A DNA stretch of 64,000 bases from Marsupella aquatica (lineage: Eukaryota; Plantae; Marchantiophyta): assembly GCA_973895155.1 (NCBI GenBank), contig OZ316896.1, positions 9,993,525 through 10,057,524 of the forward strand. The letters are read 5' to 3'. This document shows, piece by piece, positions 1-64,000 of the stretch. Positions within the stretch are counted from its first letter, which is position 1. Every line of letters starts with the position of its first letter. Position numbers and translations under genes: made by a program. The notes below the pieces were generated by a model. The model saw only the letters and a program-made list of their open reading frames with translations, had not been told where the DNA came from and did not search any database.

Positions 1-87
1 GTTCTGCATTCTGTGAAGATTGGCATCTTCAGTTCTGCATTCTGTGAAGATAGGCTAAAGACACTGCGTTGGTTGGTTTGCCTGCAG

Positions 88-1701
88 GCGTATAAGAGCA
101 ATTGTTCGGGCGTTACACTAGGAAGTACTGCGTCGCTCTGCAATCCGACAGCGTCACCCGCATCAGACGAGCAATTGACAGCCTTGCTATGCTGTCAGTA
201 CTGCCTTGGGGGTTCAAGTGATCACCTTTCCATAGTGGTGGGTGTAGTGGTGGGTGTAGCGGTCGGGCTGCTTGTGCTGGCGGTGTTGATTTTCCTACGG
301 AGGAGGTTGAAGCCAAGACTGGCCAGAAGCATAAGGAAAGGGCTCGCGTTAAATGATTATTCTTATGATGTGCTCCGTAAAGCCACAAATGGTTTTGCTA
401 CGAAGAACATCATTGGTAAAGGATCATTTGGGGTAGTATACAAAGCGGTTCTTGGAAGTGAAATGGTGGCGGTGAAGCAGTTGTCTAAACCAGCAGATCG
501 AGCCAAAGATTTCGAAGCTGAGATCAAGATCCTTGGTCTTACGAGTCATTCCAATCTAGTTGAGCTGAAAGGGACGTGTTTCCGGCCCACTGAGTGCTTT
601 CTGGTGTACGAATTGGTAGATAGCGGTGATCTGCATAGTTGGCTTTGGCCAGTAGAAAAGAAAAGCGATGCACGTGAGAGTGACAGTGAATGTCGGAGTC
701 AGCGATTTTTGACTTGGAATAAGCGGAGAAAAATTGCCAGGGGAGTCGCCAGAGGACTGAATTATCTGCACCGTGGCCTGCAACCCAACGGGACGGTTTT
801 TCATTTGGACATAAAACCCCGAAACATTCTGGTGGAGTACAACTTCAATCCCAAGATAGCAGACTTTGGCACTTCGCAACTCTACGAGCCGGGTTACACG
901 TTCAAGGCAGCGTCCGTGGTTTGTGGGACGTTTGGGTACATCGCCCCCGAGGTCCTTCAAGGTCAAGTCAAGCCGAACTCCAAGCTAGACGTGTACAGTT
1001 ATGGAATGGTCTTGTTGCAGATCGTGAGTGGGCGGAAGATTAATGACCCTGAAGTGAAACCTTACTTGCTTCAGTGGGCGACAACTCACGTAGAAGATGG
1101 CTACGTCGAGAGGGTGGTGGATCCGAACCTGAGCCTCACAGTGCAGGAGGAGTATAGAGAGGCTCTGATGGCGAACTGTAAACAGTTGATCAACTTAGCA
1201 ATGCGCTGTCTTGCGACTAGACCAGAATTGAGGCCAGAGATGAGTGAAGTTTTGGAGACCATTGACGGTTTACGGGATGTACTTGACCTCGAAACGCCGA
1301 ATACCAGTGAAGAGGACAGATCAGGCCCTGCCGACCATGGAAAGTCTACAGATGTCAAGCTCAAAATGTCCAGGCCTACTGCCAGGCGCTTGATATCTTT
1401 CTCGGGAGAACGCGATGGATCCCAGGATCGATCTTTGAAACGTTTTAGTTCTGAATCTAAAGATGAAGTGAGAAGCATGGAGAGGAACTCTGAAATTGCA
1501 GCGTTAGCTATTTCACCAGCAGATGCTGGAAACAGGCGTGATTACCGTGAAAGTAGTACCAAAGGTAATCAAGATGGTCCTGGTTCTGATGGTGTTCGTA
1601 CATTATCTGTAGATTATTCCTCGCTCAAAAGTGTCCTGGAAGTGCCAAATACGCACATAGATCCGAAGTCCAGGAATTTACGGAGAAGTGCCTCGAGCTA
1701 G
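88..1701 (+). CDS. Receptor-like Ser/Thr kinase, terminal exon (Cys-rich ectodomain end, TM helix, non-RD kinase, long C-terminal tail); 5' part lies outside the window
   Basis: Acceptor ttgcctgcag ends at 87, in frame with ORF 13..1701. TM segment IVVGVVVGVAVGLLVLAVLIFL followed by RRR. Kinase motifs IGKGSFGVVYK, VAVKQL, HLDIKPRNIL, DFG, GTFGYIAPE, DVYSYG. Stop TAG at 1699-1701. Confidence 0.93.
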   Translation, partial: AYKSNCSGVTLGSTASLCNPTASPASDEQLTALLCCQYCLGGSSDHLSIVVGVVVGVAVGLLVLAVLIFLRRRLKPRLARSIRKGLALNDYSYDVLRKATNGFATKNIIGKGSFGVVYKAVLGSEMVAVKQLSKPADRAKDFEAEIKILGLTSHSNLVELKGTCFRPTECFLVYELVDSGDLHSWLWPVEKKSDARESDSECRSQRFLTWNKRRKIARGVARGLNYLHRGLQPNGTVFHLDIKPRNILVEYNFNPKIADFGTSQLYEPGYTFKAASVVCGTFGYIAPEVLQGQVKPNSKLDVYSYGMVLLQIVSGRKINDPEVKPYLLQWATTHVEDGYVERVVDPNLSLTVQEEYREALMANCKQLINLAMRCLATRPELRPEMSEVLETIDGLRDVLDLETPNTSEEDRSGPADHGKSTDVKLKMSRPTARRLISFSGERDGSQDRSLKRFSSESKDEVRSMERNSEIAALAISPADAGNRRDYRESSTKGNQDGPGSDGVRTLSVDYSSLKSVLEVPNTHIDPKSRNLRRSASS

Positions 1702-5580: not shown

Positions 5581-5837
5581 ATCCATCAGATTGACCATAT
5601 CTGATCCCCAGCCACCATAGCTCCCCATTTTCCGACTTCCTCGGACCCAGTTGCTCCCTAAGGGCTGGCAAATCTCGTGTTAACTACAGAAACAAGGGTC
5701 TAAAAGCTTTGAAGGTTTATGGGTCTCAACTCGGAAGAGCATCAATTTGACATGTCCTAGCACCGTGCAGCAAAGATTGAGCAACGAGAAATTGAACAAT
5801 CCGGAACTCCGTGTGTGGGCAGAGCGGGCTCCATGAA

Positions 5838-8666
5838 ATGACGGCATTCGTGCAAGAGCTTAGCTTCAGGCTTTCTCTGTTCACCCGTTCGATACATCTC
5901 TCTACATTGAGGAGAGAATCCTCTAGACCTCTCTGTGGGCGGTATCGCAGTCTTCACATTCGCACCTGCTCTTCTACTTCTCTTCCATTCACTTGCTCGT
6001 CTTATTCTTCATCCTCCTCTGTTCCAATCCTAGACTCCGACTTTCCAATTCGGCTATTCGGTAGATTGTCGTCTCACAGACATCTCTCGGATGACTCTAA
6101 GCTGGGTGCTTTGGGAAGAAGTGACCGGGCGGGGCCATCAGCGAAGACAGATGATCTTGCATTTGCTGCTGGCTTGAAATTCAGTGATGACGACGACGAC
6201 GTTGATTCGCCAACAGAGGACCTTTTCTCTGATACTACTTCTGAAGAAACTGAGGACGACAGAGACGTGACCAAAGAAAGTGCACACTTCGGCGATTCCG
6301 GGGTCTATGTGAAATTCGTGCAGAAGGAAGGGTCTAGTACAAAAGAAGTACAAGCTCCGAACTATTTGACGATGACAGACAAACAGCTATTCGCACAGTG
6401 CAGGATGGATACGTACAGAGCGTCTGGGCCTGGAGGGCAGCACCGTAACAAGACTGACAGTGCTGTTAGGCTCACGCACATTCCTACAGGTTTGGTGTCC
6501 CAGGTGAAATTTCCTGATTTCGCATTATTTTCTCGTTGAATTCCTGTTTTTGTATGACTGTTATCATTTTGATTTCCCCCTGGCTCTTGATAAACCATCA
6601 TAAACGCAGAAAGATTGTTCGTTCTTCCTTTGTTCTTCATTGACGGCATAGGATGTGACACGAGTCTTTTTCCTGCTAACTTGGAGAAGACAATCATTTA
6701 TGTTGCCTTCATGTGCGCCGCAGTAGACAAGTTTTGCAGCCTCATAGATTGGGTCCCTCTGTTAGGGCTCCAAATTAGGTCAAGCCAATGGCTGATCAGG
6801 CGCTAGACGCATTAGATCGAGTCCTTGTGGTAGCGATATGGTCAACTGGTCTTTGCTTTTAATTAGTCCGAAATATGCAGGCGTGTAAACCGTTTCAACG
6901 CATGAACTTACTTCATTTAAGAATTTGCTAGCAGACCATTTGTTACAGCGAGTTAATTGGGACGGAAGAAAATTGTTCAAATATCGTGGAGTTGTTTGAT
7001 TCATTACTTGCAAATTTGTCCACTCTAGTAATTCTAATAATTCTGACAGAACTTCTAACCGTGTGATTTAAATTTCTCACATGAATGCAGGCTGCCGATG
7101 ATAGATCACAGCACATTAATCGTTCATTAGCATTGACTCGGTTGCGACAAATTATTGCCTTGGAAGGTACAACTCAGTAGATGTTCTTACTCGGGATGAT
7201 ATGCTTTGCCATTTGGTGCCACCGTAAATTCCTTGAACTGGTTACTTTTTCTTCTGTGAAGAAATCACTGTTCAGGAAGCCTAAGAGAATGCAACTTTGG
7301 CATCAGTCAGGGATCCTGTGGAATTAGAGGGGTACAAGCCACCTCTGGAGTTGTTGCGCATATTGCCGAGTGGAACAGGAGGAAAAAGAGGGAATTCACA
7401 GAGGATTGGGCCCAATCATCCCGATTTTGTTCTCGTAATACTCTCAATACTCCTCACTGCTTTTGGCGTTTTGAGACCTCATGCAACAGCTCATTATAGC
7501 AACATCTATGCAGATTCCTATCAATGTCTTTGTGAAGAGTCCAGCGAACGTGACCTTTCGTTCTTTGCAATATTTTGTTTAGTCAAAGTTTAACTCAAAA
7601 TTATTGTGTAGGGTATGAAAGCGTTGATGGACCTGCTGTATGCCGCTGGTGGTTCAGTTTCAGATGCAGGAAAAGTTCTTGGGTACCAAACAAACTTTTT
7701 ACATACATTTGTCGTTGTTTGCACAATGTCAAGTTGTTTTCCGTGAGCACCAATCAGTATTTCTTTCTTAAATATACGTCTCAATAAGAGCACTTCGTGA
7801 GGTAGAGTTTCCTGGTAATCATTGTGCAAGATTCTGTTTCTATGCTTACAAGAAAAAACATATGTAAAGAATGTATAAGAATCTTGCACAATGCTTACAA
7901 GAATGTAAGTGCAAGATTCTGTTGCAGCTGCAGGCCAATACTCAGACAGGCTCTGTTGCGAAGTTTTCTCCCAACACATGGCAGTCTATTGTTGGTAGAT
8001 CCTAGGATTTCTGTGTGCCATTTTATGTTCAAGTACACCCCATGTAGAGTCATATCATGAATAGTTGTACAGTCTGCATTTTCTAGTCAAATTCAACTTT
8101 TAATTTGATACCCTTTTCACGGTAGTGAGACTGTCAAACTGAATTTGAGGTCGATCAAAGTACATGCAGTAATGAAGAAAAATGTTGTTTTGAGTTTTTC
8201 GGAATATTTCAATTGAACGTGCTCGCTATCTGAGATTGAATAAATATATGCAGGATAACCACTGGTGCGTTGTCCAAGCTTATTACATCAAATAATCTTT
8301 TATGGCAAGGAATGAACAAACTCCGTTCCTCGAAGGTAAGCTTGTCGATTGTAGGCAGTAAACAAGCTAATGACATCCTTTAAAACGGAGTGGGGAGGAC
8401 ACTTAAGATTATCATCTGAGAGGTTGATGATCGCCAGAGTCGGGGGGAATCATTAACATCTCAGATTGCATGGGCATGGGATCATCGTTATAAAGTCGAG
8501 AAGTTTGCCGAAATGGCTTTGCATTCTTTTAGGTGTTTTCTTTTAGGTGTTTCCCATGAGCTAACCCCGCATTCATTTAACAACTCTGCGATACGGATCG
8601 CTTATAATTTATTTATGCCCGGAACGCTTTTGATTGTGTTTTTAGGGTCTGAAGCCTCTGAGATAA
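5838..8666 (+). CDS. Class I peptide chain release factor-like protein (RF-1/GGQ domain, peptidyl-tRNA hydrolase type), probably organelle-targeted; ~347 aa, 6 exons
   Basis: Exons 5838-6503, 7091-7166, 7307-7434, 7612-7682, 8254-8335, 8646-8666. All introns are GT-AG and the total of 1044 nt is in frame. Motif [36 protein letters not shown]; C-terminus GALSKLITS...GLKPLR*. The Ser/Arg-rich N-terminus resembles a transit peptide. Confidence 0.9.
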
Positions 8667-11819: not shown

Positions 11820-14800
11820 TCACAAGTAAGTCATGGTCACAGAACCCATTTGATACACATCTAAACTGTTCACCTTGATGGGGGTGGTTCCGTTGTTGAA
11901 TAGGAATATTCTTGCTTTGGAGCCGATGGCCAATGTGGGATATATTCTGGCAGTGATAGTAAATCTTCCACCTTGCACAAAAGTTTCCACAATCGAGTGA
12001 TCCACCTACATTCATGCGGCGTTCACAAGTTTAGTGGTGATGTTAACAAGCTAATCACATACATCGGAAAGCAGAGCACTCCGATCCCAGACCCAGCGAA
12101 TAACCTCAGCGGGACAAGATTATACATCTGGGAAGTATCTTGGAGGCAAGATAGTCGATGTACTATGCGGAGTAGAGTGCATTTTAAACAAAGTAAGAAA
12201 CCAAATAGACCTAAGACATGCAGAATGAGGAAGCGAGACTCACAAGAACACGTAAAGTTAGTTCCTCGTCCGATTCCAGGACCTCGAGATAACTTCCATA
12301 AACAGTCCTCTCGAGATCACCTTCATCGTACATCGAGGAGCTGCATCACGAATCACGTCTGTCAGTTCCTTCATTTGAATCTGCTGATAACGTCGCTACC
12401 ATTCTACTGTTCACTTCGCGTGCTAGAATAGAAATTCCATTGATCCAATTACAGCAAGGAGATGGGAGGTAAACTCAGTCTTCTCTCGAAGAAGCATGCT
12501 GTCAGAAGAAGCCTGACCTTCAAATACACTTGATGAATGAACAACGAACAAATGACAGATTCTTTAAAGTGGTTTGCAAATACCCGCTCTGGTCGCTGCA
12601 CACCATTGTACCCCATCCTCCATGCGTCTTGCGAACAATGTAGAAGAATATGTCGGAATGCTCAATCCGATCAACATCAGCGAGGACATTCAGCCCGAAG
12701 GGGCCAAACGTGCTCCTCTTATTAGCCATATTGCTGCAGTTAAAACCCTCCAGTGGAACGATCTCCTCGTCTCCACTTATATCCGGCTTCTCAAATGCCA
12801 ACAAAATATCCAACTGAACATTCGAAAACACAGATTGTAGAAAATAAACTCGTCAGCTGAATTGCGCGGAATGTAAACTAATACATAGGAATCTGCCTTT
12901 CCACACCGTACTCATAACCGAAATACTAAGCGTTAGCAGGTAAAACTTCACCAACCAAGGAAAGGGAGTAATAATCCAAAAACTTCCACCAGAGGCACAA
13001 TGAGCTACATCAGGAACGAAGTCCTTCGCTAGCCGAGGACAAGGTTGGCCTTCAGGTAGGCTCACAGACAGATTGCGTCCAATCTCAAGATGAAATACAT
13101 CCTCTCAATATTAGACCATCCATACTACCTATGCGGGGACACATCAATAAAGCTAAAAGATGACATTGAAGTTCAGAAGCTTATGACAAGCTAAGGATAT
13201 CCAAGTACCTGCTGCCCATCACCTCCATCCACTGGCATGACTTGCGTTGGCTGTAAATCGATGCCCTTGTAACTCGTGAGGGCTCCGCGCAGGGCCTCCA
13301 CCTCCTCAATCGGCCATTGCAGAACATTCGATTCTGTTTTTGGATCCAACCATACTGTCCTGGGAATAGACTGCACAGCCAAGGCACGCACAACCATTAA
13401 TCTTAGACATCATGGAATGAAATTGCGTTGACACATACTTCTAGGCCATACAAACAACAATTTCACGTCAGAAAAACAATTCAAGATGTTTCAAACTTCT
13501 TGCTTAGAGGAATCGACGTCTACGTCTATTTCCTAGAAAAGAAGAAAGGGTACATCATTGAGTTAGCACTTACTTGAAGGCAAGCCCATCCTTTCTTAAT
13601 GTCATCAGCTTCGCTGTCAGCCTCATGGACGTAGCCCCACAAGACACGCCTATTTTTGCTGGTGTCATAGAAAGTCTTGGAGGCGTAGAATCTTCCGTAA
13701 TCGTATCGGAGGCCAATGCCCACGTCGTTTGCAGGATCGTCAGGAGTCCACTGGTGAGTTTTCGTGGAATAGGTGCCTATGGCATAATAATCTTTCCTAG
13801 TTTCGTCCATTCCTGCCTTCAGCACATACTTCATGCCATCACGATAGATCTCCGGATTTCTGGGCTCCCCTTTACCGAGCTCACTTTCAGGAATCGTGGG
13901 AAACAAATCTAGACACTCCCAAGTTCCTGTTCCCTTCACCAAGTGCAGATTTGTCTCGTGTCGAGTCCAGTTATAGAAGTCTGGGCTGGTGTAGAAGAAT
14001 CCAACCCCATCCCTGGTTCCGTCAGGATTGATTATCACCGATGGAATAGACAATTTCCATAACGGGTCACCCTCCTCCAGCCATGCGGTTGTAGGATCTC
14101 GGAAGGCCTGAGAGCTACCGCCCTGAGGTGGATAGATAAGTGGGTTGGCATCTACCTTCTCCCATTCGAGTAGATAAGGATCGGAGGGGTCGACCGGCCG
14201 GGCCATGCTGATAGATTGGTTAGCGTCACCCCCAAATAAACCTCGCCCACCAGTGTAGAGAATTACCGGAACATCGTCCACAATGCTCACGTAGCCAGAC
14301 CAGGTACCTTGGATATCATACCACTGGTCGGGTTGCATGCTGATTGGGAGGTACTTCCAGTGAATCAAATCAGTGGACACAGTATGCCCCCACGTAATGT
14401 TTCCCCATACTCTATCGTACGGATTCCACTGATACCATAGGTGGTAGTGTCCCTTGTAATACATCGGTGCTGCAAGTTTGTTTCACAGAGTAAACCAGAT
14501 CAGCTGGACATACAGAATACTGAAGTAGTGTATTTTAATTTATCTCTCTAACGGAAAGACTATATTGTATGAATACTGCAATCCCTTCATGTGATCGGAA
14601 CAAATTGATTCCACTGCAAACATTGAGACTGGCACATTCAGACCAAACAGACCGAACCCAGTTGCCTGTCAATATATTGACCTGACCTGACTAGACTACA
14701 ATGGATGACCTCAGCCCAGATTGTGGCTATTCGCTGCAACGAATAGCCACAAAGGGTGCAAGGAACCCAAGATGAACTCCAAGCGTGGCCTTGAAAGATA

Positions 14801-17573
14801 AAGACCGGACCAACACAAAATGATAAACACCAAGCCCTCACACATGGAGGGGAGCGCGCACTGCTACTGTCAGTTACCAGCAGAGTGAAGGGAGTTCAAA
14901 CAAAATGCTAGCCAGTCAAATGTGGGGACAGGCCCGACTTCACGTTACATGAACTTTGGGCACGATCGGAAAAACCATTCCCGATCCTTGTAACCTGCTA
15001 ATGGGTCCCCGTCTTAGCTGATGTGGCATGCCTTCGACCGTCTTTCTACTTAGGATCTTGCACTTATTTTCTCCAGACCGGACACCCTTTCTTAAAACTT
15101 GAATGTGTGCAATGGACACCTCACGTTGGCAACGGCTGAAACAGAAATTCTTCGTGCCCCCGAGTTCTTGTAAAGGCCCTTAAATCAAATGAGGGCGCTG
15201 TTCAGCGCTATCAGGTTCTGTATAATGATGACGATGCTCGCCGTCAATAGTTTACGAATGCGTTATGGTGAAGACGGATTCGGGAAGGACTGCGACTGAC
15301 TTGAAACCTAGTGGCATCGTCTCAACGCTTCAAAGTTCCGAATGATGGCTTTGGGCCATAACCAAATGGCCATAGCTTTCCCACAGGCTTTTGTAAAAGT
15401 TCTATTTTGTTTTTTTTGCACTACCTCCTACAGTAACTTACGGTCATAGCATATGACCAATCTTTATGGCAAAGAGTTACGGATCATGTATTCAACAGTC
15501 CATAACTTTTTCTATTTCTAACCTGAAGTACTCAAATACAGCCAATCAATTTTTGACGTTTGAGACCCCCTAATGTCTGGACAGGAACAAATCCAGGCCC
15601 TGGATAACAATCCCCAAATCACATGAAAACTCCAATGTCTGACAAAGAAAAACTCCAGAGCACTGTATTTTTTCAATGTAGGAGAGTCGGAGGGGCAGAG
15701 ACTGGGAGACACAGTAAACGACTCATCGAGTTCCCGCAAACCTTCCCAAGAGAGTGGGGACTGGGAATGATAGGGGCCAACTATGGGCTCCATACTATGC
15801 CGGTGATCCCTAACAGTTTTTGGAACTGGATATGATTCCCAATGATATGCAACCGTTGATCAAACGGAGCATTCCCCACCTTCCAGAAAGAGTCGGGATG
15901 ATAGGAATCTTCTGTTAATACCCAAGAATGGGCCCTCCGACTTGTCTACATTCTGGCAGCCTCTAGTGAGGTCTCTCTTGCTTTATCAGGACCAGTGGGG
16001 TAGAAAAACAACACAGGAAGTCCAGACGCCCAAAGATTAGAGAAATGAAGGTGAAGACAACTAGAGTCAAATTGTCCATCATTACTTTAAAGTCATAATT
16101 GCAGAATTTCATGATTGCAGAGTTTCATGATTGCAGTGTTTCCGATAGGTAAATGGAATCAAGGAAAAAACTCTGTTCACTCAACCATTGGTGTAAAACG
16201 AATATTATGTCGGAAAGACTCGCTTAAAGTAAACCAATCAGATACTCATATCATAAGCCCCTTCCTTTGAGTTCATTCAGGGCCAACCTGACAGAAGAGC
16301 AGGGGAAAAGTAACTGTTCAAAGTCACTTACGTGACGGCAGTCAACAACAGAAACACAGCTACGAAGCGAGAATCAAGGGACGACATTCGGCTACTGTTC
16401 CGGTCCCATGGACCGCGACCAGAACACCCGACACATCATTATTAAAGCCAAACGACCAAAAAGGTGCCGTTATGCCCTATATAGACCCTCTCCTTGTGAG
16501 CGCATTGCTGAGTGTACTATGAGTGCATTGTGTATGTGTGCGTTGAGTGCATGTATGTGATAGTTTGTCTAAACCAAAGAGGGGAGGAAGGAGAGCGGGT
16601 GCTTACCACAGGGATCTGCTCGAAGCATCGGCAAGCAAAGCCCATCAATCGACGTGAATCAGAGGACAGACAGTTCACAAGAAAACTGGTCAGTAACCGT
16701 ACGAGAGAGCAATTACCAATTGACAACAGCTTTTCCCAAGCCTAGCTCGTGACCTGTCCTCTACAAAGTGAGGAGAACTTTAACGACAAACGCTACAAGT
16801 CATCCAAATGACTGGTTATCAGCTTCTCGCTGGCGAAAGACCCACCCAAAAGCTCAAAACTTAAAGTCAACCTCAACAGCATGAAAACATTTAGTTAGAT
16901 GCACCTCGATTGAGTAATATCCCAGGTAGTACGACCTCGAGTTACAAGACAATAAAACCTTACTTTCAAGAGCTCTTCAGCAGCTTCTACATTGTGTAGA
17001 TTAGTAGATGCATCTTACTAGAGCAACCCCAATGAACCATTACTTTCATATCTCTGAGCAGCTTCAATCTCAAAGATTGGGGAAGAAAACAACTTGAAAG
17101 GCTGAGTGGCACAAAATATCCAACTCTGTCCTGAGAGGCAAGTATTGGAAACTAAGCTCAATTTTGGGCACATAACATGGGAACATGGGGAGCGGATCAT
17201 TCTCACCGCTCATAAAGTTGTTCGGAGGCTGGAAGTGAAAATGCGTGCGCTGAGCTGTGAAAAAGGTCAGCTTCTCGGCATCCTCCTCGCCCTCATTCAC
17301 CGCCAGTTGTTGGCCGCCTCCTCCAACTCTGCTCTGCTGCAGACGAGTGTTTCTGAAGTCATGCGAGGAACTGAGGAACACGATTGCCCCAATGCAGCAG
17401 ACCGCGACCACCAATGCTACGCTCATGCTCCTCCACTGATACAGGCACCCACGGCCCAAACTCTCACCAGCCTCTCCGTCTGCACCCGTCATGTCTCGAG
17501 CAATGCCCTCCTCATCCGCTCCTCCACCATTTTCTGGGTGGAGCAGCGGTGCTTCCATCTCGGACTTACCCAT
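11820..17573 (-). CDS. Glycoside hydrolase family 32, vacuolar-invertase clade, with fructosyltransferase-type motifs; ~648 aa, 7 exons
   Basis: Exons 17573-17207, 16615-16607, 14469-13574, 13370-13209, 12813-12584, 12340-12244, 12005-11820. All introns are GT-AG and the total of 1947 nt is in frame. Motifs RTHFHFQP, FMSDPCAP, FRDPTTAW, WECLD, LRYDYGRFYASKTF, RRVLWGY, VLQWPIEE, VDHSIVETF. The N-terminus has EAPLL and a single TM helix. Confidence 0.95.
14945..15172. mobile_element. Small MITE-like element with imperfect terminal inverted repeats, in intron 2 of the GH32 gene
   Basis: ttacatgaactttgggcacga at ~14945 is inverted as tcgtgcccccgagttcttgtaa at ~15152-15172. Related termini occur at ~22661-23000 and ~26835-26950. 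Confidence 0.55.
15345..15515. repeat. Dispersed repeat, probably a non-autonomous TE end; other copies at ~48081-48260 and ~50415-50570
   Basis: All three loci share ggcca/cta...aatggtc..aacttt..., atgac(c/t)aatc(t/c)tta..gcaaa(a/g)agt...gga...agtc.(a/g)taa in the same order. Confidence 0.7.
16607..16615 (-). CDS. 9-nt micro-exon of the GH32 gene, contributing D-P-C of the catalytic box
   Basis: The minus strand reads agcag|ATCCCTGTG|gtaagc. The phases join exon 1 (...ATG AGC G) to exon 3 (CA CCG ATG). Size and position match the known DPN mini-exon of plant acid invertases. Confidence 0.9.
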
Positions 17574-17955
17574 CGTTCTTCCACTCACCCAAAAGCTCTA
17601 GCTGAAGCCTAGCAATCAGCATACATTGCTTTTCAGACTCTCAGAGATCGGGTTCACGAGTGAGAGATTGAGCACAGCAGAGACGAGGGTTTAGACTTTG
17701 AGAGATCGAGCACTACAGAGAGATGTGACTAGCGACCAACACACATTGCATTCAGCCTCGCAGAAATCGGAGCACTCCTCTCAGAGATCGAGAGAAGCAG
17801 AGAGGAGTATCAGCAATCGAGGAAATTCCTCTTGGAGATGGAGCACGGCAGGAGAGGAGAGTACTTCGAGATCACTGCACCAACTTCTGTCGCACTCATC
17901 GCTCGGCCGATCTCTCCCGAGAGAGCGCACTCGCGAGGTCGAATTGATGCTGCCC

Positions 17956-18187: not shown

Positions 18188-18917
18188 AAATTCCAGCAAT
18201 TTAACTACACTTGTAACCAGGCCCCTAACCAAAGAGATTTTGTCACAAGAGTTGAACTATTGCGAATGCCAACTTCCAGCAATTTACCTACTACACTTGT
18301 AACCAGGCCAACTTCCAGAAATTTACCTACACTTCTAACCAGGCCCGTGATCAAAGAGATTCCGTCACAAGAGTTGAACTATTGCAAATGCTAACTTTCA
18401 GCAATTTAACTACACTTGTAACCAGGCCCGTGACCAAAGAGGTTTCATCACAAAAGCTGAACCTCTGCAAATGCTAAATTCCAGCAATTTAAGTACACTT
18501 GTAACTAGGCTCGTCACCAAAGAGGTTTCCCTCACAAAAGTTAAACTGCTGCAAATGCTAAATTCCAGCAATTTAACTACACTCGTAACCAGGCCCGTGA
18601 CCAAAGAGGTTTCCTCACAAAAGTTGAGCTGCTGCAAATGCTAAATTCCAGCAATTTAACTATACTTGTAACCAGGCCCGTGACCAAAGAGGTTTCCTCG
18701 CAAAAGTTGAGCTGCTGCAAATGCTAAATTCTAGCAATTTAACTACACTTGTAACCAGGCCCGTGACCAAAGAGGATTTGTCACAAAAGCTGAACCTCTG
18801 CAAATGCTAAATTCCAGCAATTTAACTACACTTGTAACCAGGCCTGTGACCAAAAAGGTTTTGTCACAAAACCTGAAGTGCTGCAAATGCTAAATTCTTA
18901 GCAATTTAACTACACTT
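18188..18917. repeat. 83-bp tandem array, about 8-9 copies, upstream of the GH32 gene
   Basis: Unit aaattccagcaatttaactacacttgtaaccaggcccgtgaccaaagaggtttcctcacaaaagttgagctgctgcaaatgct. tacactt occurs at 18411, 18494 and onward to 18911 with an 83-bp period. Confidence 0.93.
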
Positions 18918-21606
18918 CTTCTCCTTCTTCTTCTTCTTTTTTTAAATTTAAAGGGCAGCAGTGCGCCCGTTTATTCCAGAGGCCACAGCGGTGAAGACCA
19001 GTAGGGCACCAAAAAATAACAAACCCAGAGGACCAATGTACACAAGTACCACACTTAAATGGGAAAATCCACCCAAAGAAAACCACTAACACCCCACACA
19101 AAGGATGACATGCAAGAACAAGGGCCGACCACCCAACAAAAGGCAAGAGCCCTGAAACAAAGCACCTCCCAAAAGAGAAGTTGGCTGTCCCCCAGGCAAC
19201 AGCAAGTCAGACTCCCCAAAAAAAGGGACCAAAGGGGGAGCATGGTCATTGCATCTAATCGAGCAGAGTTAGCTCAAAAAGTGTGTTGGCAACGCTCCAA
19301 CCAGATGCTATGAATCATCGTGTGAATAAGAAGAAGGAAACCAGGGTTGTATTTTGGGGACCTAGTCGCAGTATCAAGCTTGCCAAAGAAAGAGCAGCCT
19401 GCAGCCTTGCCCAGACTAGTGCCCACGGTTGTGTGTTCAAGTTGCATCCATCGTGGGCAAAGCTGACAGCAATCATAGAACAAATGTTCAACCGTTTCAC
19501 TGGCCGCTTTACACGCGGTGCGCAGTCCATCACTCACATCCCGTTTAAGAGCACAAGAGTTGGAGAAAAACCCAACGTGAAGCACCTTCCAAAAATCTAG
19601 CTTAACACTAGGAGAGGATAAACTTGTCCACAGATGGATCCACCTACTCCTCCATGTCACATGAGAATCAAGAGAGACTCGACGGCAATTGAGTTGTGTT
19701 CAATGGGAGGCATAGGTTGTTGCAAGATGGTGGCCTAGGTTTTAGTGGGAGATTCCACCCTTTCTTAACTCCCATCTGCCATGTCCACGTCCACCCATCA
19801 GAGGTACGTACGCAAAAGCCCTTCTGTGAACCCTAAAACCCTAAACCCCTTGGAGCTGTTCAATAAAGCAAGGAGATGTGGGAGTAGTCGCAAGGTCAGG
19901 GCCCTGGTGAAACGATGAAGCCCAACCTGAATCTGGTTAACAGTTTTCCAGCCCTGGCCATGGGTGACAAGATCTGCCACTGTGTGGATTTTCCGAGTAG
20001 CTAGTCAAGAAACTTTTACAACCCCGCAGCTCCCACTCTGTGCCATTCAGGTGACTCTCCAATAGAAGAAAAAGTTGGTCAATTGAGAGATAAGTGGGGA
20101 TTTTCCCATCACTAGGATGAAAGTCAAGCTTGCAATGAGCAGACTCCCAACCCCTAAGCATGGAGTTAACAGTAGAAGCAGAAGAAATTTTCAGACAAGG
20201 AGAGAGGAGGAGGAGATCACTAGGGTCCCAAAATTTCTGCTCCTTTTTAAATGGGCCCTTCCTAGCAATGAAATTGAACAAGGACTGGCTGCACCATGTC
20301 CACCCATGCGGTATCAAACCTAGTGAGAAGCTTGGTGAGGCTCCTCATCTTACACACTTGAGATTGCAGCTCAAACGGTCAAAGAGCTAGCCCCCCTTCA
20401 TTATAAGGGCAGGAAGATAGTGTCCCAAGCAACAAGAGCTTTTTTGTTGGTACCGTTGAGAGTCTGGCCCCACAAGAATGTACAACATATCTTTTCAAGT
20501 TGCTTATACCCAGTCTTTTAAGTATTAGGCAACCTGAGATGATACCCAGGAATAGCACGGAGGACATGCTTCAACAGGACCAGATGGCCAGCCTGTCAGA
20601 GTGTCCGGTTGGTCCAATGTCGTAGATGTTTTCTGACCTTGTCCATGAGAAACTCAGTCTCTTGTGCGGGTCAAAGGCCAGTTCCAATGGGACAGCCCAG
20701 GTAGGTAATAACCTCCCCCTTCCTAGCAATGCGACAACCAGAGCTTTCAATCCATTCAGGACTCTTAGAAGTATCAAGCTAGATGATAACAGATTTGACA
20801 ATGTTCAATAGAGCACCCGAGACACGCTCGTACTTGTGCACCACACTCCAAGCTGCCTGAAATTCCGCTTTAGTTGCTTTGAGGAACAAACCAGTGCGAA
20901 AACCAGTGTCATCAGCAAAAAGTTGATGAAGAAGCTTATGTCGATTGTCAGTGGGTACGTACCATCCTCAAGTTTAGCTTCAAGCATACTCATCAGCGGT
21001 TGTGTAGCTAGTGCAAACAATAGAGGTGCAATCGGGCACCCTTGTCTTACCCCACGCTCCAAAGGGATCTCCCTGGTAAAGCCCCCGTTGACATGAACCT
21101 TTGAAGGAGCATTGAGAACAAGACCTTGAATGAGAGAAATAAATTCCTGATCAAAATTCATGTGTCTCATTGTGTCCCAAAGGAAATTATGATCCACATA
21201 TCATATGCTTTGGCAAAATCCAGTTTTAGAAAAATAGTAGGTTGGTGAGTGATGCTTGCAAACTCTTGGCCCACCTTGAAATCCAAGACATGATCCATGA
21301 TGTTGCATGCGACCAGCAATAAACCCAGTCTGTTGTGGTGCAACCAATTGTGGGATCACCTTTTTCAACCTGTTGGCAAGGAGCTTGGCAACAATCTTGT
21401 GTGTAATAGTGAGCATGGTAAGAGGTCTCCAATTGGTCAAGAGTTGAATGTCACCACTCTTTGCGATAAGCTTAATGACACCTGTGGAGGCTTATGAGGT
21501 GAGTAACCCGTCTCTCCAAAAGGCTTGTATCATGGCGCAACTGTCAGTGCACATCCAATCCCAAAAATCTTGGAGAATTTCAGTTCTGACTCCATCCAAA
21601 CCTGGT
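18918..21606 (-). mobile_element. 5'-truncated, frameshifted non-LTR retrotransposon (L1-clade LINE: RT plus C-terminal Cys/His region)
   Basis: Fragments PGLDG, NWRPLTML, LLANRLKKVIPQLVAPQQTGFIAGR, RGVRQGCPIAPLLF, C..ASETVEHLFYDC, IHSIWLER across several frames. A 3' A/(GAA)n tail lies at 18918-18945. Confidence 0.9.
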
Positions 21607-56230: not shown

Positions 56231-57284
56231 CTAGACCCAAATCTCATGCTCCTCCACCCCGCAGAATTCATTTGAGCAAGTAAATCTAGACCCTGACGGG
56301 TCATATTTCATATCGCGATTGCAGAAATCGAGAGGCTTCCTATTCCAGAACTTTGTGGTGAGGTCCCTACACCTCAAGACTTCCGAAACAAATCCCCGAT
56401 GATTATCTCTGTAGGGTCCTGTGTACTGATATCCAATTAACGTCTTTGCAAGGTCGTTGATCGCCTCCTCCGTCAATTCCTCCATTGGTGGTAATTGTTG
56501 CACTTTATTCTTGACATCCCAAGGAATTTCGTCCGCTGTGACATCCAAGACTGTATGGATAACCGAATGAACCCATACCATACTACCCCACCACTCCGTC
56601 AACAATGCATAAATGGCAGCCTGTTGATCTCTGTCCGCTAAAACATTTATCATAGACCACTTTGGATGATTGATAAAAAGGTAGTGCTGAAGATTGAAGG
56701 CATGATACAATTTCCTGAGCAAAGGCCATAGTATTTCTGGAAAGAATGTATCATCCGTGGAGTGATGCAAAAATGAGGAAGGAAACAACCCACAATTCTC
56801 TGGATTTGCAAATGCCTTCATTGGAGTGTCATCAAGAAGGAGTGTATTAGTTTCGTCGTATAATCCACCATAACGTTTCCAAACCACCCTCAAATCCTTC
56901 AAATGAATATTTGCCTTCCCATCGGTAATGTCAGGCCTCTGGATTCTAGTACCGAATGTATCTTCTTGTGTGAGAATAAACTTGAATTGCTCTCGCTCTT
57001 CTTGACTGAAGATGAAATGAATCATTTCATCCGTCCTGGGTTTCCTTGCACAAGTCCAAATGGCAACATCAAATAATAAAAAAGCTGCAATTAAGAACTC
57101 GTGAAGATGGGGTCGCTCAACATACATAAAGTTAAACCCTCCACGTCTCCCCCAATGGACACCCTTGACACTTGTCGCACTACGGCGCGGTCCGAAACTT
57201 GGCGTTTTGACAGAATCCCAACACATTTTGTTGAGGTCAAGAATCAATAGCTTCCGTCTGATCGGACCGTTGTCGTGATTTTTT
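56231..57284 (-). CDS. FCP1/SCP-like (NIF, HAD-superfamily) phosphatase-domain ORF with a C-terminal extension; one long exon, 5' end not found
   Basis: RKLLILDLNKM (motif I), ERPHLHEFL...FDVAIWTCA, HLKDLRVVW, YDETNTLLLDDTPMKAFANPEN. The frame extends upstream to a possible acceptor (ttaag) near 57285 and is open to the stop at 56231. Confidence 0.8.
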
Positions 57285-57394
57285 CTTAAGTTATAAAAAA
57301 TTGTTTGTTTTAATATGCTATAGATTATATAAGTAATTTAGTAGTTAGATTATTAAATTTAGACTTTATTAAACTTCTTTAGCTATATTAACGG

Positions 57395-57646
57395 ACTATA
57401 GTAGTTCCACCAATGCATATGAGTAGTTCCACCAAACTACAATAATATTCACCAACGCATAGTAGTTCTACTAACGCACAGTAGGTCCACCAGCGCATAG
57501 TAGTTCTACCAACACACAGTAGTTCTACCAACGCACAGTAGGTCCACCAACGCATAGTAGGTCCACCAACGCATAGTAGGTCCACCAATGCATAGTAGTT
57601 CCACCAACGCATGGTAGTTGCACCTACTAAAAGTAGTTTCACCAAC
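57395..57646. repeat. 19-bp minisatellite, about 13 degenerate copies
   Basis: Unit gcatagtag(g/t)tccaccaac repeated with a 19-bp period. Confidence 0.9.
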
Positions 57647-59082
57647 TATGAACAGTACTAGCACACTCTTAGGTATTTGATGTTTGACACTTGGCCTTCA
57701 TCCAAGTGCTTGGGCTTGATCCATGCCCTCTTGGTGTGCACTATAAATAAAGTGGTGAGGGGCACTCTCCCCTCATTCCGCAGCGTTTATCATTCAAGGT
57801 TGTGAAGCTCTTTTGTGCCTTGAACATAGTAGTGTGCGTCCTTTGGCCCGGATAGCAAAGAAATGAGTGATAGACTTATAGATGGGACCTTAGGGAATAA
57901 GGTTTCTTTGGGAATATAGGGGTGGGCGTCCTTTGGCCCGGATAGCAAAGGAATAGGAGAGCCATCATGAATCCAGGAGAGAGAGTTATCCCTGATCTTC
58001 CCCTTCGTAATCCGTTTTTGACTAGAGTCCATCTTTTAGACAAACCATCTATGAGGCAATATCTAACTTATCATTTTGGAGCTCAGTTTACAACTGCTGT
58101 TATGGTTTCTAACGAGCCAATAATATACCTAGTGGTGTCGTACCGAGAGGAGTGGGAGTGCATCATCTTTGTCCTTTATTGAAGTCATGGATCTGAATAG
58201 GAGTCCGGATGATATCCCTATTTCATTTTCTCTTGGAGATATTAGGATCATATGTCGTAAGAAAACTAATTTTCGTGATGTGTTGGTCCGCAAATATGGT
58301 GAAGTAGGGTTTAACAGTATTTTAGTTTCACCTTAACCTTTCTTAATACCCACTACCCTTGTTACTAGAATTATCATTTTGATTTTAGTGTAGAACTTAT
58401 GAGCATGCAAGGTTAACTTCAAAAGAGCCAACTTGCTCTTGCCAGAAAACACGGTCACCCGGACATAAGTGGCGACCATACTGGGGAACCGCTGGATTTG
58501 GAAGTTAGCTTGTGCATGTTTGAGTTCTAATGGATGAAGAGAGATATGGTTTTGGAACTTTGAGTTCTTAACTTGTTTATATTATTAAATCAAGAGGGAA
58601 GAATTGCAATCATGGGAACTGAGATGAATCCAACTGATATGGAGAGGTTTTCATCCTTGATTGCTGCTTACTTACATGGAATGAAGGAGAAGGAGATGAA
58701 GGAGAACAAGAAGAAGGAGTTGCTTGGTAGGACCATGAAGTACCTACACTCGGTTCTTACCAAGCAAGGAGAATTTGATGGGCGAAATATAACCAAGTAT
58801 CTCAAGGGGTACTGGACGGAGGCTACAATTCATAAGATTGATGCAGAAGTTGTAGTCAAGGAGTTTGTATATTTAGTAGAACCTGAACTCAAGGGAATTG
58901 TTACTACCTTGATAGATGGAGCTACTGGGGAGAAAGCATGGAAGGTCTTTGAGTTGAAAGATGAAAGAAGAATTTTAGCTTGAAGATCCAGATCGGGTTA
59001 CTCAAGCATCTTTCCTTGATTGGGTGGCCGATAGAAGCAAGAAGTTGGGACCTCAAGAACTGATAAGGGAGTTTACGAAGAA
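57647..59082 (+). mobile_element. Ty3/Gypsy-type LTR retrotransposon 5' portion (LTR, PBS, frameshifted gag), interrupted by a CACTA insertion
   Basis: TATAAATA at ~57742; LTR-like end ...cccggaCA at 58465; PBS at 58470. The gag-like ORF 58573-58983 (GEFDGRNITKYLKGY) continues after a frameshift to 59082. The left LTR boundary is approximate. Confidence 0.75.
58470..58487 (+). other. Primer-binding site, similar to the tRNA-Arg-type PBS of Tat/Ogre-related elements
   Basis: TGGCGACCATACTGGGGA lies 4 nt after the CA end of the LTR. Confidence 0.7.
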
Positions 59083-60032
59083 CACTACAACATGTTTGAC
59101 ACTTTTGCGAAGGTATTTTTGTCGACGCTCTTGTATTTCCGATGGGCGGCGCTTTGCATATTTTGCGAATCAACCCGCATCGCAATTTGCGATTCTATCC
59201 ATATCGCAAATATAATAGCTGAAGCGCATTATATCGCTAATAAATTGCGAAGTAAGTGGTTTTGCAATTTTTACCGAAATGCGTCGAATGGAAAGGCATC
59301 TTCCGAAGACGGAAAAATCGCTCGCCGACTCCGAAACTAACTCATGTAAATATTTGCGAAGAATATTGGATTGAAAATGTTTTGCGATAGTAGTTGTTTG
59401 ACAAGTTTAAGAATGTCGGAGGATGGAAGATTTGCGAAACGCTGAAAATATGAAATTTGTGATTGATTTTGCATCACAAGTTTGCGAAGAGTGTAGTATG
59501 GAAATATTGAGAAACGAGAAGCTTCATATAAATTGCGAGTCCGGTGAGAGTTTGTGAGCTTCGCAAACTAAAAATTAAGGTTATTGTGAGGTGAGACAAT
59601 GAAGAGGGTGGATGGTCCAATATATGGATGGGGCAGGAGGGAAGAGGAAGGGAGGATGGAGGGAGGTACAATGAAGGATGGAAAAGGGAGGGAGTACAAT
59701 GGAAGAGGAAGGAGGGAGGAGAAAGAGGAAGGGAGGAGGAGGGACAGACGTACCACGGAGGAGGGAAACACGAGGGTGAGAATGAAAATTATGGAATAAG
59801 TAGGAAATAAAGTTATATTGAGCAACAGAGGTTAGATAGAAAGTTGCATGTAAAATTCACAAGTGATCACAATAAAACAATACAATACATATGTCATGAG
59901 TATGACTCATTCAAAAGTGAATGGCAAATATAAATATAGACAATCCTTTTTTTTATATCACCAAACATGAACAAATCAAATATAACATGAACAAATGTCT
60001 AGGCTGGACCCAAGTGCATATAAATATGTCCC

Positions 60033-63000
60033 TCACACTTGGTCCTTATCGGCCTCAAGGTCATCTAGGTCTGATACAATAACATCTGGCTTCTCAGAAA
60101 CAATGGAACGAGAACGTGGCACATAGGTGATGACAATTGACCACTCGGTGTCTAAGGGGTATGGAATGTAGAAACATTGCTCCAAGTGTGATGGGAAAGC
60201 AAATGGTTCTGACGTTTGCCAATGAGATGCTTGAACACTAGTGGCACTTGTCTTCAACCGTGTAAACCCACTCTCATCTTGAAGTACAGTGCAATTTTGA
60301 CCAACAAGGTTCACTTTGAACCACTTGCACTTGAAGACATATTCCTCAAACTTTGAATGGTTGTCATATGATACCACCAAGATCTCCTCTATCTTCCCAT
60401 AGTGTGGCACAACATCTCTAACAATGTTCCTGTCATGGCGGCTGCTTCTGGAGTCTTGAGAAAATTCCCCTTGAACTCCACAATCAAAAGTACGACCCCT
60501 CTTCTCATCAAGGGAAGAAACCCTAAAATTAACAAAACCCACAAATTTTTATTACACTGTAAAAGATACCATTAATGTAATAATCATCAAAATATGACAC
60601 CCATCCCTAAATAGCCAAAACCCACATGGCCTATGGCATAAATATAGAAGCCAACATTACAGTTATGGATGTCATTAATGATAATAGAAAGTTTTTAAAC
60701 AATATAAATAACTAATCAAAATAAGGTCTACATGAATTAATAGAGGAAGAAAGGTTAGGTACTAGTGGACCTGAAGTGTCTCCCTTGTGTCCACATAGCC
60801 GTCTTGGATGTCACCACTCTCAAAGGGCCATGAACAATGGTCCGAACGTCATCTGTGATGGTAGGAAAGTGGGACACATCTCCTCCTTGTGTCATCATGT
60901 CATCCAACTCAAGCAACTTTTGCTTCATATACTCATGCATCTTAGGAAAAATTCTTGCTCTTTGACTTTTTCTCTTGGCATTCTCATAAAACTCTCTCCA
61001 TTTCTCCATGATATTACTATTACTCAACATAAATGTTGTCAACTGTGACCACTCTGTTGATGTCAACATGCGTGTTTTTGTGGCACCTGTTAAACGGTCC
61101 TCCTCCTCTTCTCTTTCCTCCATCCAAGTACGTGGACAAGTAGGATCAATGGTGGCCAAGATGTTACTACAATAAAATATACTCTCTGCTGCCAAGTATC
61201 CTGTAGCTATGCTTCCCTCCACCCGTGCACGGTTACGTACATAAGCCTTCAACACCGCCATGTAACGCTCAAGCCAATACATCCATCTACAATGCACTGG
61301 ACCTGCAATGGCAACCTCCCGCACAAGATGCACAAGTAAATGAACCTGACAATCAAAGAAGGAAGGAGGAAGGGCTTTCTCCAACTTGCATACCACCTCA
61401 GCTGCCAATACCTCCATCCCAGGGATCTCTTCTACATATATCTCCTTTGAGCATATCCATCTCAACAAACGACCCAATGACCAGATGGCATCTTGCACTT
61501 CTTCACTCCCTATACCTATAATTGCCACTGGCAATATATGCTGCAATAGGCGATGATAGTCATGTGTCTTCAGATATCGTGGCCACTTGTGATTGTCCTC
61601 CATCCCAAAAGCTTTTCGAAGGTTGGCACCATAGCCTGTAGGAAACCGCATCTCTCCTATACGGTTCCGAAATTCACGTCTTTGGCCAACACTCAACACC
61701 CAAGGAGCAGAAGGATGATTCTCCACACCTGTGATAGGATCAATTGTCACCCAAACATCTGGATGCATTTCCATCTCCTCGCATGCCTCCCTAAAATTAG
61801 TGTCCTTCTCCCCATAAAAATGCTTTATCAAAGCCTTCCCCACATTTCCCTCTATGTGCATGGGGTCTAAAAGATGGTGGATCTTCAACTCAGACCAATA
61901 GGGCAAAGTGGCTAGTATACTCCACCTGGTCAAACCTGTCCTATCAAAGGTGAAGGAATCATTTGGGTCTGCCACCCTATTAGCTAGTGACTTCCAATGT
62001 GCAAAACTTGTTGCATCAGGAATTTCACGCTCATCACCAAATGGCATGTCAAAGGAGGAGAATAGAAGTGGGTCAAACCTCATCTCATGCCCCATGGGAA
62101 GAAACTTTGTATGCCCAATATAAACAATCTTTCTAATCCATGAACAATATGTGGCCATGTCCTCTAAGCTTGGGCCACAAGTAGAGCAAGCTTTGTACCC
62201 CTGAGTTTGCAATCCAGAGACAAAACCAAACCCTGCTTACATAGAAGAAATTAAACCATGCAAACTTTATGTTAGGGTTGTCACATGAGAAACATCAATA
62301 GGAACTACACATTATTGAAGGGTTGCAAATGGCATGGAAGTCATCTTACCAGGATAGTCATGCATTGTCCAACAAATGATCCCTCTCAATTGAAAGACAC
62401 GTGGAAAACCTCCTGTAATTTTCCTGCCATCATATGCCCACACTCCATTCCATAATTTTTGAAGTTCTCCAACCAATAGTGCCAAGTAAGTGTCAAAGTT
62501 CTTCACCTTTTTTGGACCTGGGATAATCAAAGACAATAAAAGGAACCCCTTCTTCATGGATAGCCATGGTGGGAGGTTATAATTCATGACAACCACAGGC
62601 CAAACTGATGTAGGTTGCCCCTTTCCTCCAAGTGAATGAGGGCTAACTCCATTAGATGTCAATCCTAGCCTCACATGGCGAGGATCATGTGCAAAGTCTG
62701 GCCATGTTGCCTCAATATGTTTGTGAGCAGGGGAGTCAACTGGCAACCGCATGACACCAGACTCTGATCGATGAGTCTTATGCCATACCATCAACTCTGC
62801 CAAGTCAGAACACCGATACATGTGCAACAACCGAGGAATGATGGGAAACCAACGAACAGCCTTCCTTGGCACCTTCTTTGTTAGCATGTTGGGGTCATAG
62901 CGAGGCTCATCACATGTTGTACATTGTGTCATGTTTGCATTGGCCCCATGAAATAACATGCAATCATTCACACATGCATGAACAATATGATATTCCATGC

Positions 63001-63502
63001 CAATAGATGAGAGAACACTCTTTGCCTCCTTCCAAGTTGCTGGCAACACATTCTCAGTGGGCAACATAAGGTCATGGCAAAGTGCAAACATATCAGATAA
63101 CAAGGCATTGCTTGCCTTGTGTTTGGCCTGTAGGTTCATCAACCCCAAGATGGCTGAAAGATGACTCAAACGAGCACCCTCATAGATAGGTGTTCGGGCA
63201 TGTTCCTCTGCTTCTTCCCATTGGCGTTGTCCCTCAGGGGTATGCCTTGGGCGTGGATCATTGGGGGGCACCTGCCCTTCATTGGGAAGGTCATCACCAA
63301 GGTTGTCGGCACCAAACCAATCAACCATAAAGTCATCCATGGCTCTATCCTGGTCATCAGTTACTTGTTCATCCGTCCAAGGTACCTCTTCATCAGGGTT
63401 ACTGCTTCCACTAGCACTTGATGAGGAGTGTGACTCTGATCCATGTCCTTCTTCTGGCATACCCATTTCTCGATATGTTGCTCTCAATCTCCGTGGTAAC
63501 AT
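60033..63502 (-). CDS. CACTA transposase (Transposase_21/Tnp2 with DUF4218- and DUF4216-like regions); ~1034 aa, 3 exons; probable catalytic D->N change
   Basis: Exons 63502-62350, 62232-60771, 60522-60033 are GT-AG and total 3105 nt in frame. Motifs HACVNDCMLF, WFPIIPRL, PRHVRLGLTSNG, YNLPPW, HDYPG, HLLDPMHIEGNV, LKTHDYH, PPSFFDCQVHLLVHL, GPVHCRWMYWLERYM, FKCKWF. Confidence 0.92.
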
Positions 63503-63699
63503 ATTTGGAGAGGGTCGCACATTCTAAAAACAAAGCAAACAATTGAAAGTTATATTGCAAAGAGAACACACACAAAAATGGGCTAGGGGTGTGCAAAAAT
63601 GAAATAATATTGGTTGTGGTGCAAATACAAAATGTGGCCAAAGGCCATATGTAGTGCCCTTTGATATGCAACATACCACCTATGACCCTTAACTTAACC

Positions 63700-63999
63700 C
63701 TAATCCCACTCATAGTGAGTAAATAACTCATCCCCTGAGTTAATGGTCCTTGTTGCTACAACTAGGCAATGGTCATGATGATATGTCTGGCCATAAGGTG
63801 CTGGCGGAGGACCCTCAATGAAAACCCACTCACAATTTTGCCTACGCTTAGGGCGAGTCCCCACAGTACTGTTTATGAAACCAGCAATATTCCCAGTCCG
63901 TATGGGGTCCCCATCTATGACACGCTACTCACTATACCTTCTAGTGTTTCCATCAAAAGTATCCATGTCCAATGCATAAGTCTTCCACTCAGGGTGTTG
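63700..63999 (-). pseudogene. C-terminal half of a SET-domain protein with one internal stop, truncated by the window end
   Basis: Manual translation from 63999: QHPEWKTYALDMDTFDGNTRRYSE*RVIDGDPIRTGNIAGFINSTVGTRPKRRQNCEWVFIEGPPPAPYGQTYHHDHCLVVATRTINSGDELFTHYEWD*. It matches the SET pattern Y-x-L...ID...GN-x-A-x-FIN...NC...VVA-x-R-x-I-xx-G[DE]EL-xxx-Y. Internal TAG at 63925-63927. Confidence 0.85.
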
Positions 64000-64000
64000 T

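Follow-up and report, generated by a model that had tools for sequence, protein, structure and literature searches.

A SET-domain exon lies within a CACTA transposon at the end of the 64,000-nt stretch of the Marsupella aquatica genome analysed here (the window), and we consider it almost certain that the exon is element-borne. Its recurrence beside the same transposase in relatives makes it a fixed part of a CACTA element lineage of mosses and liverworts. The features on which this rests are collected in Table 1.

An earlier note, made from the letters of the window alone, had described a minus-strand frame ending about 200 bp before the transposase ATG. The frame is present as described: its stop codon (63700-63702) lies 198 nt ahead of ATG 63502, on the same strand as the Tnp2 transposase. 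Translated from 63999 it reads QHPEWKTYALDMDTFDGNTRRYSE, a stop, and then RVIDGDPIRTGNIAGFINST running on to CLVVATRTINSGDELFTHYEWD and the terminal stop, so that the reading through to EWD-stop stands, while the frame turns out to be interrupted by an in-frame TAG at 63925-63927. The proposed SET fold was borne out. The 74 amino acids after the internal stop match the Pfam SET profile PF00856 (E 2.9e-5; 24.9 bits, the cut-off being 22.4), and the close homologue P0009 gives a confident SET-fold model. Over 99 amino acids the piece is 90% identical to P0008 and to P0012 of Calypogeia fissa. The premature TAG breaks the SET exon of the window copy. Contigs from runs X1 and X3 at full depth, and most of those from X6 and X7, have G at 63927 and so read Gln (CAG), hence the stop looks private to the window copy or nearly so.

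Table 1 Features of the window
Feature	Position	Strand	Basis or remark
SET-domain exon, 3' part (last 99 codons and stop)	63700..64000	-	remainder and exon 1 lie past the window end
Premature in-frame TAG in the SET exon	63925..63927	-	translation and contig comparison
SET motif III, GNIAGFINST; Asn kept, Ser at the usual His position	63865..63894	-	alignment of family rows
SET motif IV, GDELFTHY; catalytic-type Tyr 3 residues before the stop	63712..63735	-	alignment of family rows
SET 3' untranslated stretch, pyrimidine tract and AG acceptor of the Tnp2 exon (inferred intron end)	63524..63699	-	TTTGTTTTTAG, then AAT after the junction
Tnp2 exon A (Transposase_21), phase-0 start, without a PF13963 domain of its own	62350..63523	-	Pfam
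AAT (Asn) in place of the relatives' Asp in the RLGLxSDG motif (here SNG)	62651..62653	-	comparison with relatives
Tnp2 exon B (end of Transposase_21, DUF4218)	60771..62232	-	Pfam
Tnp2 exon C (DUF4216) and stop	60033..60522	-	Pfam
Element 3' end: CACTACAACA terminus and TTTGCGA subterminal repeats	59083..59600	+	sequence
GAA, candidate 3-bp target site duplication	59080..59082	+	sequence; the second copy would be past 64000
Insertion site: older element, probably of LTR type, whose frameshifted frame is interrupted at the CACTA end	58564..59082	+	translation
Candidate host gene, GH32 invertase/fructan-type	13526-17597	-	translation only
Candidate host gene, receptor-like kinase	1-1701	+	translation only
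Candidate host gene, peptide release factor-like	5796-6539	+	translation only

The transposase is assembled from three exons with GT-AG borders, which join in phase to give 1042 codons in total with no internal stop. Pfam identifies Transposase_21 (E 1.5e-37), DUF4218 and DUF4216. ATG 63502, which the earlier note took as the start of the protein, is probably not the start, because 63523 is preceded by a splice acceptor and conservation extends to the residues ahead of the Met. Of 12 loci matching the RLGLxSDG motif, 9 have its Asp, as do all five other Tnp2 proteins in which the motif was found; the change of this Asp to Asn is a defect of the window copy and not a family trait. We take this residue to be the first catalytic Asp of the transposase, and with Asn at that position the transposase of the window copy is probably dead too.

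A CACTA end flanked by GAA had been predicted, and such an end is real. GAA followed by CACTACAACA stands at 59083, the sole occurrence of that 10-mer in the window; it cuts an older frame, and subterminal repeats adjoin it, with nine copies of TTTGCGA in the adjacent 518 nt against seven in the other 63,482 nt. The first 10 nt of this end, and TTTTGCGA at equal offset, match the 5' ends of two related loci, L003 (at 6760) and L009 (at 6806); the first 600 nt of these two ends hold 10 and 6 copies of TTTGCGA, respectively. The sequence common to L003 and L009 begins at CACTACAACAACAGGGG, with the same subterminal repeat, and this end lies 3.2 kb upstream of SET in both, which places the SET exon inside the left end in these relatives. 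With the 3' end of the window copy at 59083, the proposed location inside a CACTA element is thereby supported. The two ends come from different copies, the 3' end from the window and the 5' end from L003 and L009 only. The other end of the window element would be expected as TGTTGTAGTG some 4-5 kb past 64000, followed by GAA. The earlier note saw no second CACTA terminus between SET and Tnp2; a 7-nt CACTACA does occur there, at 63650-63656 (-), and it is unlikely to be an end. We rejected it as the left end, since it shares just 7 of the 10 terminal bases, has CCC and not GAA beside it, and is accompanied by no TTTGCGA repeat anywhere in 59600-64000; it is taken as chance.

The element is nested in older repetitive DNA. 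Positions 57676-59082 hold an LTR-like stretch and a gag-like frame with a frameshift, and TGGCGACC at about 58470 resembles a primer site; each of the four runs (X1, X3, X6 and X7) has contigs that lack one base at 58957. The segment 58564-59082 has no Pfam match, and its retroelement identity is inferred from the LTR-like and primer-site-like stretch upstream. Further out, an FCP1/NIF-like phosphatase domain (Pfam, E 2.7e-16) is encoded by an ORF of 368 codons that stays open across 56231-57337 (-). A tandem array of ten 19-bp units adjoins it at about 57400-57680, and X1 and X3 contain many variant contigs that cover the ORF. This ORF is probably the cargo of another multi-copy element, of which CACTAGAAAAA at 55070 could be an end. 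We considered it as further cargo of the SET element and rejected this, as it lies outside the 59083 end and matches none of the 37 related loci described below. Elsewhere the window contains an 83-bp tandem array (18188-18944) and a decayed LINE-like frame (19274-21200).

Searching with the window SET piece returned 29 proteins. Identity is 71-92% over most of the piece for 28 of them, and the organisms named among these matches are Sphagnum species and Calypogeia fissa. In metagenome contigs a scan located 37 loci (L001-L037), which we take to come from peat moss as most are 79-97% identical to the Sphagnum protein P0022. The SET C-terminus is reached in 34 of them, and 29 extend at least 200 nt beyond it. 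In 27 of these 29 a Tnp2 exon follows 140-151 nt after SET, the exceptions being L019, which ends after 228 nt, and L021, in which a retroelement interrupts SET. The corresponding distance in the window is 180 nt, and the window is about 80% identical to the metagenome elements in SET and 72-79% in Tnp2. Divergent contigs of the window's own lineage likewise join Tnp2 exon A to the SET exon (record 7 of X1; a joint from 63526 to 63698 in X3). The expectation that SET and Tnp2 would co-occur in many copies therefore holds, and it does so across several families.

A profile search of 1.84 billion representatives extended the SET family to 113 members, among which identity falls to 24-30%. The 30 whose organisms were looked up include 14 from Riccia sorocarpa and two from Calypogeia fissa. 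Six of the 113 distant members also match Tnp2, and all six are Riccia sorocarpa gene models in which SET runs into the transposase; being predictions, these models indicate adjacency and not real fusions. Neither the 99 candidate stretches from viral contigs nor the 18 from prokaryote genomes held a relative, and Pfam detected no other chromatin domain in the 44 family proteins scanned. Host-type SET domains in the PDB score E 0.0055 or worse against the family. A family tree was built from 65 of 70 rows, P0048, P0050, P0057, P0086 and P0097 having been dropped for length; with an unresolved backbone and no outgroup it gives no origin, and P0084, which was wrongly cut, sits on a false long branch. 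One divergent SET branch has no Tnp2 link seen (P0081, P0087, P0094, P0096, P0102, P0105, P0108-P0110, P0122, P0124, P0125, P0134 and P0136) and may be carried by other elements or have been domesticated. A lead to the origin of the family is an atlas cluster, scored 0.96, in which most SET proteins are from Basidiomycota. For annotation, many 'SET domain-containing' gene models of Sphagnum, Riccia and Calypogeia are probably transposon copies and not host genes; one cluster of such models holds 360 members.

In the relatives, SET proteins begin with a separate exon 1 that encodes CxCxxC-x13-HxxxxG. In four seed-plant Tnp2 proteins the same Cys/His spacing recurs ungapped within the N-terminal domain. 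Against these N-termini the exon-1 profile scored 10.5, 3.4 and 2.9 bits, the best of 200 shuffles reaching 2.4, and the fourth domain (P0004) scored below the shuffles; the hhalign match is partly built in, because the segments were cut on the Cys pattern. P0083 matches PF13963 weakly (E 0.031, below the Pfam cut-off). The splice sites are in register: the exon-1 donor is a phase-0 GT in all 14 loci, 19 of 20 cleanly placed loci have a phase-0 AG at the SET exon (a count that leaves out three that are interrupted, offset or cut by a contig edge), and the Tnp2 exon has an AG at the phase-0 position in 24 of 27 loci, as it does in the window. None of the 36 proteins carrying exon 1 joins it directly to Tnp2. 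The resemblance of exon 1 to a transposase-associated finger, together with the matching phase-0 acceptors, makes alternative splicing from one unit likely. The simplest reading, and one we regard as quite probable from the sequence comparisons, is that SET is an alternative last exon within the first intron of the transposase gene, with exon 1 shared. The free-standing cargo gene proposed in the earlier note looks instead like such an alternative exon.

Two further features occupy the region upstream of SET in the relatives. Between SET and the left end, the opposite strand carries a third, multi-exon gene (L014 383-2227 (-); L017 137-1924 (-); about 7500-9500 in L003 and L009). Seven pieces of it matched no Pfam family, with one weak atlas lead only, and it may fill the TnpA role; Pfam found no TnpA-type domain in this gene or in the 3' part of the window. 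Conserved non-coding blocks upstream of exon 1 (L019 408-500; L014 2890-2975) are probably 5' untranslated exons.

Comparisons between families indicate purifying selection. SET dN/dS between the window and 31 loci ranges from 0.12 to 0.26 (P 2.5e-10 or lower in the four pairs tested), values that are not independent since 30 of the loci come from one family, so that the independent contrasts are the window, that family and L019. Tnp2 gives similar values, mostly 0.09-0.19. Between L001 and L019 the ratio is 0.23 in the SET domain and 0.86 in the linker. Among copies of the peat-metagenome family there is no purifying signal in SET, with 10 replacement and two silent changes against a neutral expectation of 9.3 replacements; the test counted shared non-deamination changes, in small numbers, most changes being C-to-T or G-to-A. 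Tnp2 in the same copies shows a mild purifying signal (12 replacements against 16.3 expected). The SET exon is open for all 266 codons in four of 18 spanning loci. The lack of a SET signal within the family fits decay after a burst, and may also reflect a recent loss of SET function in the peat family. A dN/dS below 1, as anticipated in the earlier note, is thus seen between families and not among copies of one. At silent sites the window and the peat family have diverged by only about 0.7 in SET and 1.0-1.4 in the longer Tnp2 alignments, and exon 1 of Calypogeia (P0012, P0185-P0187) is about 80% identical to that of Sphagnum (P0022). The silent divergence seems low for the moss-liverwort split and suggests horizontal transfer.

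These data bear on two other accounts of how SET came to lie beside Tnp2. The stop in the window copy and the neutral decay among copies of one family are what one would see if a host SET gene had left a single, neutrally decaying fragment here, or if the piece had come to lie beside the transposon by chance. Such an origin is highly improbable in the face of the constant order and spacing seen in 27 of 29 loci, the position inside the left end, a between-family dN/dS far below 1 and an identity of at most 29% to any solved SET domain in a wide fold search. None of the outcomes that the earlier note had named as speaking against its idea (no SET match, a SET exon outside the element, a one-off decaying host fragment) was observed. 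Alternatively, SET and Tnp2 could be two tandem genes, with Tnp2 starting from its own ATG (63502) and exon 1 belonging to SET only. An in-frame ATG does follow the acceptor in both the window and the relatives, and the 0 of 36 count for a direct join of exon 1 to Tnp2 points the same way. The gap between the two, however, is merely 140-180 nt, and conservation between families covers both the acceptor and the seven codons ahead of the ATG. A transposase without exon 1 would also miss the TAD that heads the usual four-domain ORF1 as outlined in PMC8978399. On balance, we find tandem genes unlikely.

The SET domain itself models well. P0009, which is 86% identical to the window piece, was modelled with a 65-row alignment at a pLDDT of 92.9; full-length P0022 with a shallow alignment gave a pLDDT of 35, and the profile of that alignment had no PDB match. 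Foldseek and VIA-align with the P0009 model returned SET domains throughout, at no more than the 29% identity given above. VIA Z-scores were 12.1 for Set1, 12.0 for EZH2, 11.7 for SET7/9 and 11.6 for SET8 (range 12.1-11.1), so no class stands out, and PR domains fall within about 1.5 Z of the best matches. Among rows with a residue at the position (P0009 numbering), the GxG and YxG motifs keep G66 in 54 of 58, G68 in 58 of 59, Y or F90 in 62 of 62 and G92 in 61 of 62, and the E-x4-Y motif keeps E196 in 55 of 57 and Y201 in 52 of 55.

Canonical SET lysine methyltransferases carry the motif RFxNHS, with a His. In the family, motif III reads G(F/Y)INS, the usual His being replaced and the usual Arg being Gly: the Asn is present in 59 of 65 rows, Ser takes the His position in 63, and His occurs in none. 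In the window's subfamily the chain stops three residues past the Tyr, without a post-SET or C-flanking segment, and with the His and Arg replaced as well, part of the usual cofactor pocket is missing. The earlier note had read NST for NHS as in PR/SET-type domains and had found no post-SET cluster; both observations are accurate, but NST for NHS does not make the protein PR-like or dead. The best PDB sequence match is LegAS4 (E 6.5e-6), whose motif III, YINFS, also lacks the His. LegAS4 methylates H3K14, according to the portion of PMC10653858 consulted, and its SET domain alone is inactive without the ankyrin part. Because the catalytic motifs are conserved and LegAS4 is active without a motif-III His, activity is plausible, and we predict, with reasonable confidence, that the SET protein is an active lysine methyltransferase.

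What the protein does for the element can be stated as a model, which as a whole we judge evenly balanced between right and wrong: the SET exon of the element, spliced to the transposase finger in intact copies, would methylate on the element's behalf. From one promoter, exon 1 (CxCxxC-x13-H) would be joined to the SET exon to give a product of about 340-350 aa or, with the SET exon skipped, to the Tnp2 exon to give a finger-transposase. Through the shared finger the SET protein would be recruited to the element or the transposase, where methylation would maintain the expression or accessibility of the element, most likely by counteracting silencing. Action on histones at the element, in the element's favour, has a little less than an even chance. 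A wider version is doubtful: bryophyte CACTAs would splice a SET domain onto the transposase finger as a histone writer overriding silencing, in an old unit with members below 30% identity that moved horizontally between liverworts and peat mosses.

Two alternatives concern this function. The SET fold could be dead and kept as a histone-tail binder or decoy that shields the element from host H3K9 or H3K27 methyltransferases. The replacement of the motif III His and Arg across the family, the absent post-SET region and the closeness of PR domains to the best fold matches would suit a decoy, yet GxG, the Asn and the C-terminal Tyr are kept in about 90% of rows or more despite 24-30% identity, and LegAS4 is an active enzyme without the motif-III His. 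We therefore think a decoy improbable. An active protein might instead regulate transposition, by methylating the transposase or a host protein or by writing a repressive mark that dampens the element. It would have its N-terminal domain in common with the transposase, the structural matches single out no histone class, and TnpA-type domains are missing from the places named above; against this, those who describe other transposon-borne SET domains read them, unassayed, as chromatin modifiers in the passages available (PMC12730594; bioRxiv 2025.02.11.637652). A regulator of this kind appears rather unlikely. The favoured model, methylation for the element, bears on whether transposons write histone marks to escape silencing. 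With intact genes (four of the 18 loci, plus P0012 and P0022) and a well-modelled domain of about 200 residues, this is directly testable in plants, in which transposable elements carry H3K27me3 in liverworts and mostly H3K9me2 in Physcomitrium, as reported in part of bioRxiv 2022.10.24.513474.

Among known systems, maize En/Spm resembles the unit proposed here in yielding two proteins, TnpA and TnpD, by alternative splicing. In angiosperm CACTAs, ORF1 comprises TAD, Transposase_21, DUF4218 and DUF4216, and the CACTA end and subterminal repeats are as here; ORF2 adds Transposase_24 or Peptidase_C48 (PMC8978399, as far as its text was available), whereas the second product of the bryophyte element would be the SET protein, placed between TAD and Transposase_21. 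The earlier note knew of no such element in land plants. Our literature search found no description of a SET-bearing land-plant Tnp2 CACTA, although Repbase Reports, subscription journals or the Bostrychia supplementary tables may hold one, and the accessible part of PMC11982613 does not mention any. SET-bearing transposons as such have been described, including Plavaka, which is filed under EnSpm/CACTA. In the portions of the literature examined, no transposon-borne SET enzyme is reported as assayed.

Acquired SET histone methyltransferase genes also occur on DNA transposons of other superfamilies, namely HarbingerS and oomycete (Phytophthora) MuDR families (Kojima and Jurka 2014, as cited in the part of PMC12730594 seen). 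Phytophthora Helentrons carry a small SET ORF (PMC4067079, in its available sections); these are rolling-circle elements whose SET resembles Clr4, while the bryophyte SET forms its own family. Functionally, we liken the bryophyte SET protein to VANC of VANDAL elements, which changes the silencing of its own element (cited in the available text of PMC12730594 and bioRxiv 2025.02.11.637652); VANC belongs to an element of MuDR type, acts on DNA methylation, is not a SET protein and has a demonstrated function. A further close counterpart is the red-algal Plavaka, likewise of the EnSpm/CACTA superfamily, whose accessory gene PAG2 carries a SET domain (PF00856) proposed to modulate transcription (bioRxiv 10.1101/2025.02.11.637652, from the portion available). 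PAG2 stands as a gene of its own, fused to an N6-adenine methylase; the elements that carry it measure 17-19 kb and have three accessory genes. Compared by description, the bryophyte element differs in having a land-plant Tnp2 and a SET domain without a DNA methylase, which apparently shares the first exon of the transposase.
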